Source: a bacterium
GTDB lineage: Bacteria; UBA8248
Assembly (NCBI GenBank): GCA_965219955.1
Contig: OZ244799.1
Coordinates: forward strand, 448,001-512,000
Direction of reading: 5' to 3'
Length of the DNA stretch: 64,000 nucleotides
Shown: in pieces, positions 2,367 to 51,878 of the stretch
Position numbering within the stretch: the stretch's first letter is position 1
Layout: every line of letters starts with the position of its first letter
Program-made: the position numbers and the translations under genes
Notes under the pieces: generated by a model
Database searches by the model: none
What the model saw: only the letters and a program-made list of their open reading frames with translations
Told to the model about the DNA's origin: nothing

Positions 2367-2463
2367 GTAGGTCGGTTTGTAGGTCGGACATATATGTCCG
2401 ACTTATATGCGACCCTGCTTTTTTTCGCCTCTCAGTCATGGGCAGCATATATGCGGCCCCTAC
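2367..2463. repeat. GTAG-headed REP-like palindrome pair
   Basis: GTAGGTCGGACATATATGTCCGAC plus inverted GGGCAGCATATATGCGGCCCCTAC. Confidence 0.75.
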
Positions 2464-8017: not shown

Positions 8018-8510
8018 GTAGGGGCGGACCGATGTGTCCGCCCTGTCGGCTACCCAAGTAGAGAGGAAATTCACTCCCCCCTTGAGGGGGAGTCAGTGAG
8101 CTAAGGGCGCAAGCCCGCAAGCGAACTGGTGGGGGGTATAATTCGGAATGGCGATAAAACGCGATTCACCCCCCACCGAATCGGCCTTTGCACAAACCGC
8201 TCGGCCTCTTCGACTCCCCCTCAAGGGGGGAGTGGATACTTTTTTGCGGGTGTTGCTTTTTCTTGCCCCCCTGTCAAGGGGGGGGTAGGGGGGTTGGTTT
8301 TCAAGGCGAGAGCCTGCGCCGTCGCCCGGTTTCGAGTTTTGGCCGTCATTCCGGCAATCATTTCCGACCAAGGCGGGAGGGAATGCGGAATCCATTTTCA
8401 AGCAGAATGACAATACGCCGGCTTTTCATCTCCCCGTCATTGGCGCGAACCAATCAAAAAATAAAAAACAAAGGCAAAACAAATGGATTCCGGCTCAAGG
8501 CCGGAATGAC
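8018..8510. repeat. Composite repeat cluster: GTAG-REP, family C, family B half, family A doublet
   Basis: Units match copies at 1981-2166, 18770-18845 and 25211-25343. Confidence 0.8.
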
Positions 8511-47784: not shown

Positions 47785-48272
47785 GTGGGCAAATGCGGGG
47801 AATTGCGGGCTGCTGCAGGGTGCGAAAAAACTTTTTTTATTCGATACAATTCGAAAAAATATTCATTTTCTTCTTTAATCTACTTTCATAACTGATTGAA
47901 ATATCGCTTGTTTCTTCTTTGGTTTCTGCATCGTCCATTTTCAGGAATTTATCGAAAAACCTCGTGAATTTATCCAATTTTACGGGAAATTGGATTATTT
48001 TCATTTCCATCGTCATTTCCGGGTTCATGGGCGCTGCTCCCTGTGAGAGCCGAACCCGGGCGGGAGTCCGCCTCTTCGGATCATGCGGGGGGACGGGCTG
48101 CAGGGGCCGCCCTCGAACGGCCGCTGCGGAATACGCGGTCCTGGTCATCACGCCCTCCCTTGCGGGCTGGTTCCGAACGACGCGGGCGGGATTGCTCTCC
48201 CGCGCGCGGCGCGCACGATACCGCAATGCGGATTTTCGGGGCGTACGGCAATTGCGGGGAAATGCGTGGTCA
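47785..48272 (-). repeat. Phased-motif dispersed element, uninterrupted copy
   Basis: Reverse complement is colinear with 8547-9245; 48101-48272 is directly repeated at 54141-54311. Confidence 0.7.
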
Positions 48273-48724
48273 GGCCCGGCCGGGGCGGGAGGGTTCGACC
48301 CGCGCGGGGAGGGGCTGTTGAAAAAGTCTCTGCACGACTTTCGAGATCGTTTTCTGTAGGGACAGGCCTCCGTGCCTGTCCTGTATCGGGGTGAATATGA
48401 CGGGCGGGCACGGTCGAACTTCCCTCTTCGGGAAGTTCGACGCCCCTACAGTCGTCATTCGAGGGATCGCATGTATGGTTGTTGAAAATGCCTCCGAAAG
48501 CAGGGAATGGGTTTCCCGTAGGGGTCAGACATATATGTCTGACTGCGTGTCCGCCCGGTTGTTGATGCGGACCTTGTCGATGCTTTCTCCCCCTGTTGGC
48601 GTTCCAGCCCCCGATATCCGTTCGATATGCGAACTTCGCGTTTGGGTCGATGGGGTGGACGCCTCCTTCCGGCGGATTAGAATGTGGCGAGACGACGTCA
48701 CACACCGCCCGGAAGGAGACGACC

Positions 48725-49750
48725 ATGGGAGGAGTCTACATCATCGGGGTCGACTTGGCGAAACACAGTTTTCAACTCCACGGCGCGTGGGCGGACGGGC
48801 GGGTCGCGTTCCGCAAGAAGCTGACGCGGGCGAAGGTGCTGGAGTTTCTGTCGTCGCAGCCTCGATGCGTGGTGGCGATGGAGGCGTGCGCGAGCGCGCA
48901 CTACTGGGGGCGCGAGGTCGGCAAGCTCGGCCATGAGGTTCGGCTCATGCCGCCGGTCTACGTGAAGCCCTACGTGAAGCGCCACAAGAACGACGCGGCG
49001 GATGCGGAGGCCATTTGCGAGGCGGCCACCCGGGCGACGATGCGCTTCGTGGCGGTGAAGAGCGAAGCGCAGCAGGGGTGTGGGATGGAGTACCGCACGC
49101 GGGATTTGCTGGTGGGTCAGCGCACGCAGGCGCGCAACGCGCTGCGCAGCCACCTGGCGGAGTTCGGGGTCGTCGAGCGGCAAGGGCCCGTGGGCCTCAC
49201 ACGGCTGGCGGCGGCGGTTCGGGGAGCGGAATCGGGCCTGCCCGAGGAGGTCCGCGAGTTGGGCGGGATTCTGCTCGCCCAGATTGGCGGCCTCGATGCG
49301 AAGGTCCGGGAGTTGACCGGACGGCTCCGGGCGAGCGCATACGCGGACGAGGAGGCGCGGCGTCTGATGAGCATCCCGGGTGTTGGTCCGATTACGGCGT
49401 CGGCGATCCGGGCGTTCGCGCCGCCGGTGGAGAACTTCCGTCGGGGCCGTGACTTCTCGGCCTGGCTGGGTCTGGTTCCCCGGCAGCACTCCACGGGGGG
49501 CAAGCCCCGTCTGGGGGGCATGTCGAAGATGGGCCAGCGCGACGTGAGGCGTCTGTTGATATCGGGCGCGATGTCGGAGATACGCTGGGCGGGGCGTCGC
49601 CGGAAGCCGCCGTGTCCGTGGCTGGCGCGGATGCTGGCGCGCAAGCCGAGGAAGGTGGTGGCGGTGGCGCTGGCGAACCGGATGGCGCGCATCGCGTGGG
49701 CGCTGATGCGGAACAAGGATGTCTACAGGGAGCCGGCGCCCCTCGCCTGA
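48725..49750 (+). CDS. IS110 family recombinase/transposase
   Basis: DEDD motifs GVDLAK, AMEAC, KNDAADA; SIPGVG; GLVPRQHSTGGK catalytic Ser; AAGGAG RBS. Confidence 0.95.
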   Translation: MGGVYIIGVDLAKHSFQLHGAWADGRVAFRKKLTRAKVLEFLSSQPRCVVAMEACASAHYWGREVGKLGHEVRLMPPVYVKPYVKRHKNDAADAEAICEAATRATMRFVAVKSEAQQGCGMEYRTRDLLVGQRTQARNALRSHLAEFGVVERQGPVGLTRLAAAVRGAESGLPEEVRELGGILLAQIGGLDAKVRELTGRLRASAYADEEARRLMSIPGVGPITASAIRAFAPPVENFRRGRDFSAWLGLVPRQHSTGGKPRLGGMSKMGQRDVRRLLISGAMSEIRWAGRRRKPPCPWLARMLARKPRKVVAVALANRMARIAWALMRNKDVYREPAPLA

Positions 49751-49779
49751 GCGGCGGGCGCACGGATAGAGCCGGGAGG

Positions 49780-49965
49780 AATGTGAGCAGGCCGGAGGAA
49801 GGGTAAGGGCAAACGGTCATCGAGACGGGACCGGGAAAACCAGATGCGTGTCCAGAGCCACCGAGCTCACCAGGTCGATTTGGACCCGGTCCACCTATCT
49901 CCATACGGGCCCGCGGCCAGAGTAAAGCGCCGCAACGAAGAGGCCGGATATACGACTGAGCCGAA
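49780..49965 (+). ncRNA. Putative bridge/seek RNA of the IS110; boundaries approximate
   Basis: Stem 49828-35/49885-92 encloses guides 49845-53 and 49873-77 that match the target flanks; ATATACG at 49948-54 matches the donor end. Confidence 0.75.
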
Positions 49966-50139
49966 CCGCTTTGCGCCGAACCCTCCCCAAAAACCGCTTG
50001 CATTCTCGTGGGCGTCCATATACGGACACGCAGGTCCGCCCTTACAAAAAGCGCAGATCCTCATACATCAGGGCTTCTTCTTACCCCCCTGACAAGGGGG
50101 GGCAGGGGGGGGGGGTGGTTTTCAGGACGAGGGACCCCG

Positions 50140-51526
50140 CGAGTTACTGTCAAATGTTGTGTATGGCCGTCTTGAGTTCAGCGGCCTCCCTGCCGGTTTC
50201 TTTTTCATTCACCCCATTGATGAACCTCACGTCGGTGATCACGTCGGCCAGATGACCCAGGCCGCCCAGCCGCCCCCATCGCTTCTCGGCGCTCATGGCG
50301 AGTTGGTGAATCAGGCTCAGCGCCGTCTTCTCGCTCAGGCAGTTCCTCGTCTTCGCCGTTCGCAGCCGGATCGTGGCGAAGGTCGACTCGATCGGGTTCG
50401 TCGTCCGAAGACTCCGCCAGTGCGCCGCCGGGAAGTCGTAGAAGGCGAACAACTCCTCGCGGTCCCCCGCCAGGCACGCGGCGGCCTTGGGGTACTTCGC
50501 CTCCCAGGTGGCGAGAAAGCGTTCGAACGCCTTCTCCGCGTGCTCGCGGGTCTCCGCCCTCCACATCTCGTACAGCATCGGCCGCGCTTCGCGCTGAGCG
50601 CTTTTGGGCAGCTTGTCGAGAACGTTCGCCGTCTTGTGCACCCAGCAGCGCTGCGCCCGGGTCTCGGGATACACCTCGGCCAGCGCCGACCACAACCCCA
50701 GACCCCCGTCGCCCACCGCCAGCTTCGCCGCCTTTACCCCCCGCTCCCGCAGGCCGAGCAGAACCGCCTTCCAGCTCTCCTTCGATTCACGGAACCCCGC
50801 CTCCAGGGCCAGGAAGCGCTTGCGGCCCCGCGCGTCGCAGCCCACGACCACCAGAAGACAGCGCCGCTCCCCGCTGCGCACGTTCACGTAGATGCCGTCC
50901 GCCCACAAGTACGCGAACTCCTCGCCGCCCCAGTCCCGCTCGCGCCACTGTAAGTACTCGCGCTCCCAGCCCTCCTTGAGACGCGAGACGCTCGCCGGGG
51001 ACAAGCCCTTCACCGACTCGCCGAACAGCGCCGTGAGCGCCTCGCCGAAGTCGTTCGTCGATACCCCCTTCAGGTACAGCCACGGTATCACCGCCTCCAC
51101 GCGCCGCGTCTTGCGCAGATACGGCGGCAAAAGCTCCGAACGGAAACGCCGCCCCGCGCCCGACCTGTCCCGCGTCCGAGGAACTTGAACCCGCACCGGA
51201 CCCACACCCGTCAATACCTCCCGAGAAGGCAGATACCCGTTGCGCACCACCGCGCGGCGGCCCTGCGCGTCATGGTCGCCCGCATGCTCTTCCAGATAAG
51301 CCGCCAACTCCGCTTCCACCGCCTGGCGGATGATTCGTCGCGCGCCCGCGCGCAACAGTTCGCTCAACTCGTCTCGTAAGGCTGGATTCCTCAAGGGAAT
51401 CGTCGTATCTTCTCTCATGGTGGCGCATCTCCTTGTGCTGAATGACCGGGCTTTGGACAACCCTATTTCAGCAGGATGCGCCGCCTTCTTCAATTCAGCC
51501 CATACACAAGTTTTGAACGTAACTCG
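50140..51526 (-). mobile_element. IS256 family insertion sequence
   Basis: Imperfect ~27-bp TIRs CGAGTTACTGTCAAATGTTGTGTATGG / CCATACACAAGTTTTGAACGTAACTCG; 8-bp TSD GGACCCCG at 50132-39 and 51527-34. Confidence 0.92.
50150..51418 (-). CDS. IS256 family transposase
   Basis: RNGYLP, YLWADGI, AVGDGGLG, QRCWVHK and LRTTNPIES motifs; ATG 51418. Confidence 0.95.
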   Translation of the reverse strand: MREDTTIPLRNPALRDELSELLRAGARRIIRQAVEAELAAYLEEHAGDHDAQGRRAVVRNGYLPSREVLTGVGPVRVQVPRTRDRSGAGRRFRSELLPPYLRKTRRVEAVIPWLYLKGVSTNDFGEALTALFGESVKGLSPASVSRLKEGWEREYLQWRERDWGGEEFAYLWADGIYVNVRSGERRCLLVVVGCDARGRKRFLALEAGFRESKESWKAVLLGLRERGVKAAKLAVGDGGLGLWSALAEVYPETRAQRCWVHKTANVLDKLPKSAQREARPMLYEMWRAETREHAEKAFERFLATWEAKYPKAAACLAGDREELFAFYDFPAAHWRSLRTTNPIESTFATIRLRTAKTRNCLSEKTALSLIHQLAMSAEKRWGRLGGLGHLADVITDVRFINGVNEKETGREAAELKTAIHNI

Positions 51527-51569
51527 GGACCCCGGACAGGCACGGAGGCCTGTCCCTGCAATACGCGGT

Positions 51570-51878
51570 GTGGTTTGGTTCGTCATCCCGGTGTTTGCGC
51601 CGATCGTCGAACTGCTCGACTTTGCCGGCCATGCGTCCAGGCTGGACGTCGTCTATTGGTTCGCCATTCTGCTTGCGGTGGACCTGCAAACCTCTTTCCT
51701 GACGCCGCCGTTCGGATTTGCGCTGTTTTACATGAAGGGCGTGGCCTCACCCCAGGTCAGGATCCAGCAGATCTACACCGGAATCATTCCGTTCGTGCTT
51801 CTGCAACTGACCGGGCTGGCGCTTATCATGGCATTTCCGGGAATCGCCATGTGGCTGCCGAGACAACTGCTCAATTGA
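51570..51878 (+). pseudogene. C-terminal fragment of TRAP transporter large permease (DctM-like)
   Basis: WFAILLAVDLQTSFLTPPFGFALFYMKG...GIIPFV...FPGIAMWLP; 5' part replaced by REP/IS256. Confidence 0.85.

Follow-up and report, generated by a model that had tools for sequence, protein, structure and literature searches.

Three predicted guide sets on one IS1111-type insertion sequence and the palindromic repeats they fit in a UBA8248 genome

The stretch of DNA analysed here (hereafter the window) comprises 64,000 nucleotides (nt) of the forward strand of contig OZ244799.1 (positions 448,001 to 512,000; assembly GCA_965219955.1) from a bacterium of the GTDB lineage UBA8248. At window positions 48650-50024 it carries an insertion sequence (IS) of 1375 bp, of the IS110 family and IS1111 type, which starts with ATGGGGTGGACGCC at 48650, finishes with GGCGTCCATATACG at 50024 and is made up of a 75-nt left end, one gene and a 274-nt non-coding tail (49751-50024). 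The dinucleotide CG, its core, stands just outside the left end (48648-49) and recurs as the final two bases of the right end (50023-24). Judging from the sequence, we consider it very probable that this is an intact element of the IS1111 group with a two-loop guide RNA aimed at host palindromic repeats, here called REP-A and REP-B (the label REP denoting a multi-copy palindromic unit). An earlier note, made from the letters of the window alone, had proposed the ends, stems and guide words, and all of these words and their coordinates hold after each was re-read in the sequence. The features of the locus, including the left and right target guides (LTG and RTG) and the left and right donor guides (LDG and RDG), are as follows.

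48641-48649, + strand: left target half TTTGGGTCG, the 5' arm of a REP-A variant, ending in the target copy of the CG core (48648-49) and equal to LTG positions 49873-77 over GGTCG
48650-50024, + strand: whole insertion sequence, 1375 bp, one of eight full matches in the genome at 98-100%, with the ends ATGGGGTGG...CCATATACG common to the copies
48650-48724, + strand: left end, 75 nt, in which ATGGGG (48650-55) is the predicted right donor half read by the RDG
48656-48683, + strand: promoter-like site TGGACG-16-TAGAAT (one such site against 0.2 expected)
48656-48663, + strand: left sub-terminal inverted repeat TGGACGCC, the reverse complement of 50011-18, kept in relatives
48725-49750, + strand: transposase/recombinase gene, 341 amino acids (aa), with Pfam PF01548 and PF02371 and NCBIfam NF033542
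49796-50024, + strand: predicted bridge RNA or long seekRNA region within the 274-nt non-coding tail, matching covariance model R1 with 207 bits and conserved in relatives of 56-81% aa identity
49828-49835, + strand: 5' strand of the target-loop closing stem, GGACCGGG, pairing with 49885-92, with 2 bp more between 49840-41 and 49882-83
49845-49853, + strand: RTG TGCGTGTCC, which is 50024-32 in reverse complement and can pair with the top strand over the core G and GACACGCA
49855-49868, + strand: inner target-loop hairpin GAGC-CACCGA-GCTC (GAGC at 49855-58, GCTC at 49865-68)
49872-49877, + strand: LTG AGGTCG, in the same sense as the left flank with the core included; GGTCG (49873-77) equals 48645-49
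49885-49892, + strand: 3' strand of the target-loop closing stem, CCCGGTCC, pairing with 49828-35
49897-49904, + strand: RDG ATCTCCAT, complementary to the left end ATGGGG(TG) with one G-U pair (CTCCAT at 49899-904)
49908-49945, + strand: donor-loop core, a stem GGCC (49908-11)/GGCC (49942-45) around a hairpin GCGGC (49913-17)/GCCGC (49929-33)
49948-49954, + strand: LDG ATATACG, in the same sense as, and equal to, the final 7 nt of the right end (50018-24)
49988-49993, + strand: conserved TTGCAT, a possible -35 hexamer of a promoter completed over the circle junction (TTGCAT-N17-TACGAT), with a near-invariant CTTGC in the alignment
50011-50018, + strand: right sub-terminal inverted repeat GGCGTCCA, conserved in the relatives listed
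50018-50024, + strand: right-end terminus ATATACG, the left donor half with the CG core at 50023-24
50025-50045, + strand: right target half GACACGCAGGTCCGCCCTTAC, the remainder of the REP-A hairpin (loop and 3' arm)

The product of the gene matches the Pfam families DEDD_Tnp_IS110 (PF01548; E 1.9e-13, 50.9 bits against a cut-off of 29) and Transposase_20 (PF02371; E 8.2e-23, 81 bits against 21.3) as well as the NCBIfam model 'IS110 family RNA-guided transposase' (NF033542; 302 bits against 140). Residues D10, E53, D90 and D93 are invariant in 56 of 56 relatives and are probably equivalent to D11, E60, D102 and D105 of IS621, an equivalence drawn from order and spacing, the N-terminal pairwise alignment being too weak to show the correspondence. 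The nearest solved structures are those of the ISCro4 and IS621 transposases, the match being confined to the C-terminal domain (E 4e-9 for IS621). There, phmmer sets T257-G258 of the local sequence H-S256-T257-G258-G259-K (residues 256-258 at window 49490-49498) opposite the catalytic S-G of ISCro4; of the 56 relatives, 50 have T and 6 have S at position 257, while 40 have S and 16 have T at position 256.

The two sub-terminal inverted repeats are 8 bp long and lie 6 nt from their respective IS ends, and there are no terminal inverted repeats. As expected of the IS110 family, duplication of the target is limited to the shared core dinucleotide, which can be read from other copies of the element (c1 to c8, the window copy being c1): the flanks of c4 join in frame with one CG removed, and those of c6 and c7 rebuild the empty REP-A sequence. 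The hexamers of the candidate junction promoter TTGCAT-N17-TACGAT fit 7 of 12 consensus letters, and the scan of c1 preferred a site that lies within the right end alone. Over 48450-50200 the site scan found nothing that looks like a terminator. A Mutator/IS256-type transposase gene (PF00872, 242 bits) lies at window 50153-51586 on the - strand, 130 bp from the right end of the element. Another short repeat of palindromic form, CCCCC(C)TGACAAGGGG(G), lies between the two at 50081-50125, where a long run of G comes after it. It also occurs in the left flank of c3 and may represent a further REP-like family.

The long non-coding region, with its match to the RNA model, lies downstream of the gene (274 nt against 75 nt upstream), and the RTG (49845-53) precedes the LTG (49872-77), which is the published order of IS1111 seekRNAs. 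Within the window itself the 9-mer GGACACGCA occurs three times against 0.55 expected, a count reached in 1 of 100 shuffles. A stronger control comes from a permutation over the whole family. We scanned one genome per species, which gave 562 confirmed relatives, and kept 80 of 56-81% identity, whose downstream regions align with that of the window and whose IS ends are sharp. Of the 41 distinct elements, 21 have CG and 20 have TG as the core dinucleotide that closes the left flank, and the right end, the LTG and the LDG of an element all finish with its core as well; the earlier note had spoken of a new recombinase with a CG core, which was too strong a word for what is another member and not another kind. 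The LTG matches the left flank over at least 5 contiguous letters in 35 of these 41 elements and the RTG matches the right flank over at least 6 in 26 (the scoring was gapless, and some of the RTG misses show shifted matches). When flanks were permuted 2000 times among elements with 37 distinct guide pairs, the summed match of 230 for the LTG (permuted mean 70.7) and of 216 for the RTG (permuted mean 103) was equalled in none of the permutations.

The donor guides follow the ends of the element in the same way. The LDG equals the final 7 nt of the right end in 36 of 37 cases, through nine different words, with L045 matching 6 of 7 letters, and the RDG becomes GCCAT where the left end is ATGGCG (L051 and L069). 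A relative in the same genome (79% DNA and 75% protein identity) changes its words jointly, i.e., TTCATCG with the left flank, TGAACG with CG+TTCA and ATACACG with the right end. An IS110-family paralog of 40% aa identity (G000:C1:2634683-2635986; locus L014, 1271-2715), which was found only by the covariance model (62.9 bits), has the same RNA architecture downstream of its gene; its core is AA, and the three words LTG, RTG and LDG again agree with the sequence of its flanks and right end. This joint variation of guide words with flanks and ends, together with the guide order, bears out the layout of target loop and donor loop proposed in the earlier note. In L022 and L047 (~2782) a relative is inserted at GGGGGCG/TCCATAGACG (a slash marks the insertion point here and below), which is the right-end terminus of another family member, and its RTG matches that word over 9 letters; one IS has here targeted the end of another.

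The predicted structure was examined with RNAalifold on 37 sequences aligned by MAFFT, an alignment that was not fitted to structure. The 8-bp stem 49828-35/49885-92 with its 2-bp extension, the GAGC/GCTC hairpin and the donor core GGCC/GGCC around GCGGC/GCCGC were all recovered. Counted on the alignment, 98.4% of the 850 cells in the 23 pairs are paired, and 9 of the 23 pairs show changes on both sides (43 cells). None of 500 shuffles reaches any of the five measures, and pairing falls to 22-44% when the partners are slid by 1-3 columns. The target-loop closing stem (helix 1) is 97.3% paired with 4 of its 8 pairs changed on both sides, as are 3 of the 4 pairs in the inner hairpin (helix 3); the donor-loop helices 4 and 5 are 100% and 99.5% paired and mostly invariant.

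The genome, one contig of 4.28 Mb, holds eight full copies of the element in addition to the two relatives above and two remnants which keep the RNA region without a transposase gene. One remnant (G000:C1:1860662-1860886, - strand) retains about the last 110 codons' worth of the gene, and the other (3812406-3812633, + strand) starts right after a tRNA-like sequence. Seven of the eight copies sit in the two palindromic repeat classes and one interrupts a reading frame; their flanks, with the IS oriented as in the window, are given below.

c1 (window): left TTTGGGTCG, right GACACGCAGGTCCGCCC; REP-A variant
c6: left GATTGGGCG, right GACACGCAGG; REP-A
c7: left GTTTGGGGCG, right GACACGCAGG after a duplicated right end; REP-A
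c3 and c5: left GTGTAGGTCG, right GACATATATGTCCGAC; REP-B
c8: left GTGTAGGTCG, right as in c3 and c5, without the C of the right core; REP-B
c2: left CACACAGTCG, right REP-B, without the C of the right core; REP-B
c4: left CTGGAGGTCG, right ACACGCAGGTGCGGG; inside a gene

This copy map had been suggested in the earlier note as a check, with unrelated targets as the outcome that would speak against guided insertion. The targets are related: the word at the eighth site, that of c4, is REP-A-like (GGTCG/ACACGCAGG), and where the targets of the copies differ their guides mostly differ too. In c4 the word lies within coding sequence and no base is lost; since both flanks make up one open frame (...FFLEV-D-TQVRVALYAEHG...), c4 is a gene-disrupting insertion, and to speak of REPs as safe landing sites went too far. 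Judged by eye, the interrupted frame resembles that of a CobW-type GTPase. We rejected two other readings of the junctions, namely a 1-nt deletion at the right junction of c4 (the flanks share one frame only if the site was GGTCGACACGCAGG) and an extra T inserted in the left flank of c1 (the T of GGGTCG is a single G-to-T substitution against the c7-type REP-A arm GTTTGGGGCG).

Six of the eight copies encode identical, uninterrupted proteins of 341 aa and the other two are 98-99% identical. Over 1375 bp, c1 to c6 are identical except at the right junction and at positions 49831, 49846-48, 49871 and 49875, all of which lie in the target loop. Position 49831, in the stem, changes from C to T in c6 with a G-U pair retained. 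At 49846-48 the RTG reads GCG in c1, c2, c6 and c7 and ATA in c3, c4, c5 and c8; the GCG form (TGCGTGTCC) fits GGACACGCA of REP-A and the ATA form (TATATGTCC) fits GGACATATA of REP-B. Only c6 has the LTG word GGGCG, the others having GGTCG, and c6 sits behind GGGCG. There are hence three guide sets, ATA+GGTCG (matching REP-B), GCG+GGTCG and GCG+GGGCG (matching REP-A), and both guides match the copy's own site in five of the eight copies (c1, c3, c5, c6 and c8). In the non-coding region the eight copies differ nowhere but at the guide positions and at 49831, and this holds even for c8, whose gene differs at 26 positions. We read the series as a stepwise natural retargeting, from ATA+GGTCG (REP-B) through GCG+GGTCG to GCG+GGGCG (REP-A); this order is suggested by the LTG AGGTCG, which fits REP-B arms best (6 letters), and by the ATA form, which recurs in four other sequencing runs.

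Both repeat families are small, with 45 REP-A hairpins (GGGCGGAC-N4-8-GTCCGCCC) and 13 REP-B palindromes in the 4.28 Mb. Their target words are GGGCG/GACACGCAGGTCCGCCC and GTAGGTCG/GACATATATGTCCGAC, respectively. In the window, full REP-A hairpins (GGGCGGAC-N6-GTCCGCCC) stand at 8022, 14400 and 19300, in line with the earlier note; at its fourth site, 48544, there is no full hairpin but half of one, joined to another palindrome, GTCAGACATATATGTCTGAC. Counted on both strands of the genome, perfect empty sites number 10 for GGGCG+GACACGCA, 2 for GGTCG+GACATATA and 0 for GGTCG+GACACGCA, the set of the window copy, so that the targets can hardly be called abundant, as they had been. Of the two GGTCG+GACATATA sites, one is at window ~2379-2400 and the other is the opposite strand of the palindrome occupied by c2. 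The intact REP-B copy GTAGGTCG/GACATATATGTCCGAC at window 2379-2400 is the only unoccupied perfect target of the ATA set.

Two kinds of irregularity affect the right junction. The right junction of c2 and c8 reads CCATATA-GGACAT against CCATATACGGACAT in c3 and c5, i.e., the C of the CG core is absent, at the following positions.

G000:C1:694057-694060: C-less right junction of c2
G000:C1:4205789-4205792: C-less right junction of c8

One Illumina contig of run X18 has the same C gap (window 50023) before a REP-A flank, and because three independent insertions show the same gap it can be no random error. A heritable variant with a short end could account for it, as could the scar of an abortive cleavage. 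An error of assembly specific to the context is unlikely, given that the C is retained within an identical 20-nt context in c3 and c5 and that the X18 contig shows the gap too; we do not favour a target variant with a GG core followed by heteroduplex resolution, as empty GTGGACATATATGTCC and GGTGGACATATA have 0 hits each in the genome, and models with a shifted register predict left junctions that are not observed. The other irregularity is a perfect 70-bp tandem duplication of the right end in c7 (G000:C1:4139891-4140037), bounded by ATATACG, the word common to the LDG-coding DNA and the right end. Similar right-end repeats are found in L019, L049 (a unit of 131 bp in about 9-10 copies) and L058 (10 bp). 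According to a preprint on IS621, matching of the donor arm alone suffices for recombination (preprint 10.64898/2026.08.31.748434). By analogy, this suggests that the DNA encoding the donor guide is such a donor half-match and could seed right-end duplications, the alternative being simple slippage.

The 24 sequencing runs at hand are assembled contigs, from which RNA starts, ends, strand and level are not readable, and X5 and X18-X20 were compared. Contigs from three RNA-labelled runs, of two studies, cover the tail (X19 at 49714-50028; X20 at 49735-50028 and on into a REP-B flank; X18 at 49814-49994), which shows its presence in those libraries and is at most a weak hint of transcription; the stretches of the transposase gene left uncovered in X18-X20 carry no evidential weight. 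Several contigs in the other samples follow the conserved stems but part from the window sequence exactly at 49843 and 49876; they are relatives with other target loops. Runs labelled as sponge or marine metagenome contain 0.39-0.69 of the sampled words, approximately the share made up by the IS alone.

Taken by analogy with the systems compared below, the 341-aa DEDD recombinase would bind an RNA from the 274-nt region downstream of its gene, and this RNA would have two internal loops. In the target loop (49828-49892) the RTG would pair with the top strand of the right target half, and would be followed by the small hairpin and by the LTG, a copy of the left target half with the CG core; in the donor loop the RDG would pair with the left IS end and the LDG would repeat the right IS end including the core. 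The RNA would join the fused ends of an excised circle (...CCATATA-CG-ATGGGG...) with a genomic site N-GGTCG/GACACGCA, and donor circle and target would recombine at the CG dinucleotide. The preferred sites would be the 5' arm and loop of REP-A (GGGCG/GACACGCAGGTCCGCCC) and of REP-B (GTAGGTCG/GACATATATGTCCGAC).

Several observations weigh against this reading. Among the relatives, the LTG matches fewer than 5 contiguous letters in 6 of 41 elements (L016, L022, L043, L056, L069 and L074) and the RTG fewer than 6 in 15 of 41 (L020, L021, L026, L027, L032, L045, L049, L058, L062, L066, L069, L078, L085, L087 and L089). Among the copies, c7 has one LTG mismatch, c2 sits in REP-B with a GCG guide and c4 in a REP-A-like word with an ATA guide, and excision of c2 and c8, in which the right core has lost its C, may be impossible. 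Covariation says little on the donor-loop stems because these hardly vary, and the 235-nt region does not stand out by its folding energy (z = -0.79, with 44 of 200 shuffles folding equally well). A search of 48000-50600 against Rfam release 15 found nothing at E up to 1, so the search with cmsearch that the earlier note called for was run with the covariance model built here. The data from the RNA libraries are contigs which may derive from DNA. In the protein, T257 takes the place of the catalytic Ser of the 'SG' motif in the alignment and has S256 next to it, so that either residue may be the nucleophile.

The element shares most of its anatomy with described systems. Insertion of IS110-family elements into REPs has been known since 2003-2006 (Tobes and Pareja, 2006, PMC1525189). 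Elements of the IS1111 group have sub-terminal repeats of 7-17 bp and longer right ends, and for 93% of those in ISfinder a bridge RNA was predicted in the right end (Durrant et al., 2024, PMC11208160). The seekRNAs of ISEc11, ISPa11, ISKpn4 and ISPst6, which are 70-100 nt long with a long form of 145-170 nt, co-purify with the transposase, are essential, and carry the top-strand complement first and then the bottom-strand complement; a donor copy moves only if flanked by a matching target, and the seekRNA is naturally re-directed between ISEc11 and ISXne4 (Siddiquee et al., 2024, PMC11187229). The present element resembles these in its DEDD transposase of ~340 aa, its sub-terminal inverted repeats, its long downstream non-coding region, its top-strand complement 5' of the bottom-strand complement and the natural retargeting between its relatives, whereas its inverted repeat is 8 bp against the usual 11-13 bp and its retargeting, known from sequence alone, is among otherwise identical copies of one genome. 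The idea that versions of one IS with more than 95% identity could target different sites is that of Siddiquee et al. (PMC11187229), who report that it was not found for IS621; no earlier description of isogenic guide variants within a genome came up in a limited literature search, none of which was aimed at this element.

With IS621 (Durrant et al., 2024, PMC11208160; Hiraizumi et al., 2024, PMC11208158) the element shares a two-loop RNA with LTG/RTG and LDG/RDG, a 2-nt core in donor and target, a REP target, and the DEDD motif with a hydroxyl residue before Gly in the C-terminal domain. In contrast, the RNA of IS621 lies in the left end with the guide order reversed and the core is CT instead of CG; only the C-terminal domain aligns, and the position aligned with the nucleophile is mostly Thr here. 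Like ISPpu9, ISPpu10 and ISPa11 (PMC1525189; Pares-Guillen et al., 2025, PMC12288879), the element is inserted at a fixed dinucleotide inside REPs, has ~7-8 copies and may, as they do, gain extra modules via recombination at internal look-alikes of the IS ends. It differs from ISPpu9, which has the core AG and a long structured region upstream (PMC12288879), and from all three in that one element here serves two REP classes through variants of its guides.

The rival explanation that survives best concerns how the guide sets arose: a templated or targeted process, such as short-patch conversion with REP DNA or sibling copies as the source, could have produced them instead of point mutation and selection, with sibling RNAs acting in trans. 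We regard it as possible, if on the unlikely side. The six positions at which c1 to c6 differ are all in the 65-nt target loop of the 1375 bp and three of them are adjacent (GCG/ATA), c8 is a mosaic with the non-coding region exactly as in c3-c5 and a gene that differs, and c2 and c4 carry the 'wrong' guide for their sites. The bridge RNA of IS621 works in trans (PMC11208160), and ISPpu10 is called trans-acting in a section heading of a preprint (10.64898/2026.03.19.712850). However, the three adjacent changes are all transitions, the intermediates of which could pair via G-U/G-T wobble; selection on an otherwise strongly constrained region could give the same picture; and the ATA form, present in four other runs, is older than the burst in this genome. 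The misfits of c2 and c4 could come from sibling RNAs in trans, from G-T tolerance or from a guide converted afterwards. For c2 there is no need of trans action because, by direct reading, its GCG guide still pairs with REP-B (6 Watson-Crick pairs, 2 G-T pairs and 1 mismatch). An extension of the idea, which we consider rather doubtful, is that the copies form a shared guide pool in which each RNA moves any copy in trans and several repeat classes are covered, with the target loop changing faster by a directed or templated process. The C-less junction and the right-end duplications could then be by-products, left where the recombinase acts on the DNA that encodes the guides and on the right junction of the element itself; if so, 'locked' copies and new RNA-only modules would result.

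It is quite improbable that the element is a dead relic, real in itself, with matches of guide and flank that record past insertions and no movement now. Such a state would agree with the lack of any direct sign of activity (no joints, whether empty site or circle junction, are listed for the compared runs), the defective right core in two of the eight copies, the duplicated right end of c7 and the two remnants without transposase. The six identical, uninterrupted proteins, the non-coding region conserved to the letter outside the guides and 49831 even beside the diverged gene of c8, and guide variants that fit different repeat classes speak against it, and the element is probably still mobile. 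That the protein itself picks the target (e.g., by recognition of the REP hairpin), the 'guides' being carried-along REP fragments with no RNA function, is scarcely credible. It would agree with targets that are hairpins, with the presence of the RTG word in REP arms and with the specificity that a target stem-loop is reported to add in ISPpu10 (preprint 10.64898/2026.03.19.712850). Against it, the four words co-vary with four DNA partners in relatives that insert into sites with no relation to REPs, they occupy the loops of a structure that shows compensatory changes, and c4 is inserted in coding sequence with no REP hairpin.

An RNA-guided IS1111-type element in REPs is known in kind, being preceded by bridge RNAs (Durrant et al., 2024), seekRNAs (Siddiquee et al., 2024) and REP-targeting IS (2003-2006). 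The near-isogenic guide variants, the two misfits between guide and site, the right junction short of 1 nt and the right-end duplications at the donor-guide word are worth a look by specialists, and the element adds a CG-core recombinase with mapped guides to those that might serve as tools. The value of the case lies in a clean natural example, in which three guide sets stand on an otherwise identical backbone of 1375 bp in one genome and each set can be checked against a small and countable set of genomic targets, two of the copies having a guide that does not fit their site. In essence, such a natural series bears on the tolerance of mismatches and wobble pairs, on the action of the RNA in cis or in trans and on the origin of new specificities.

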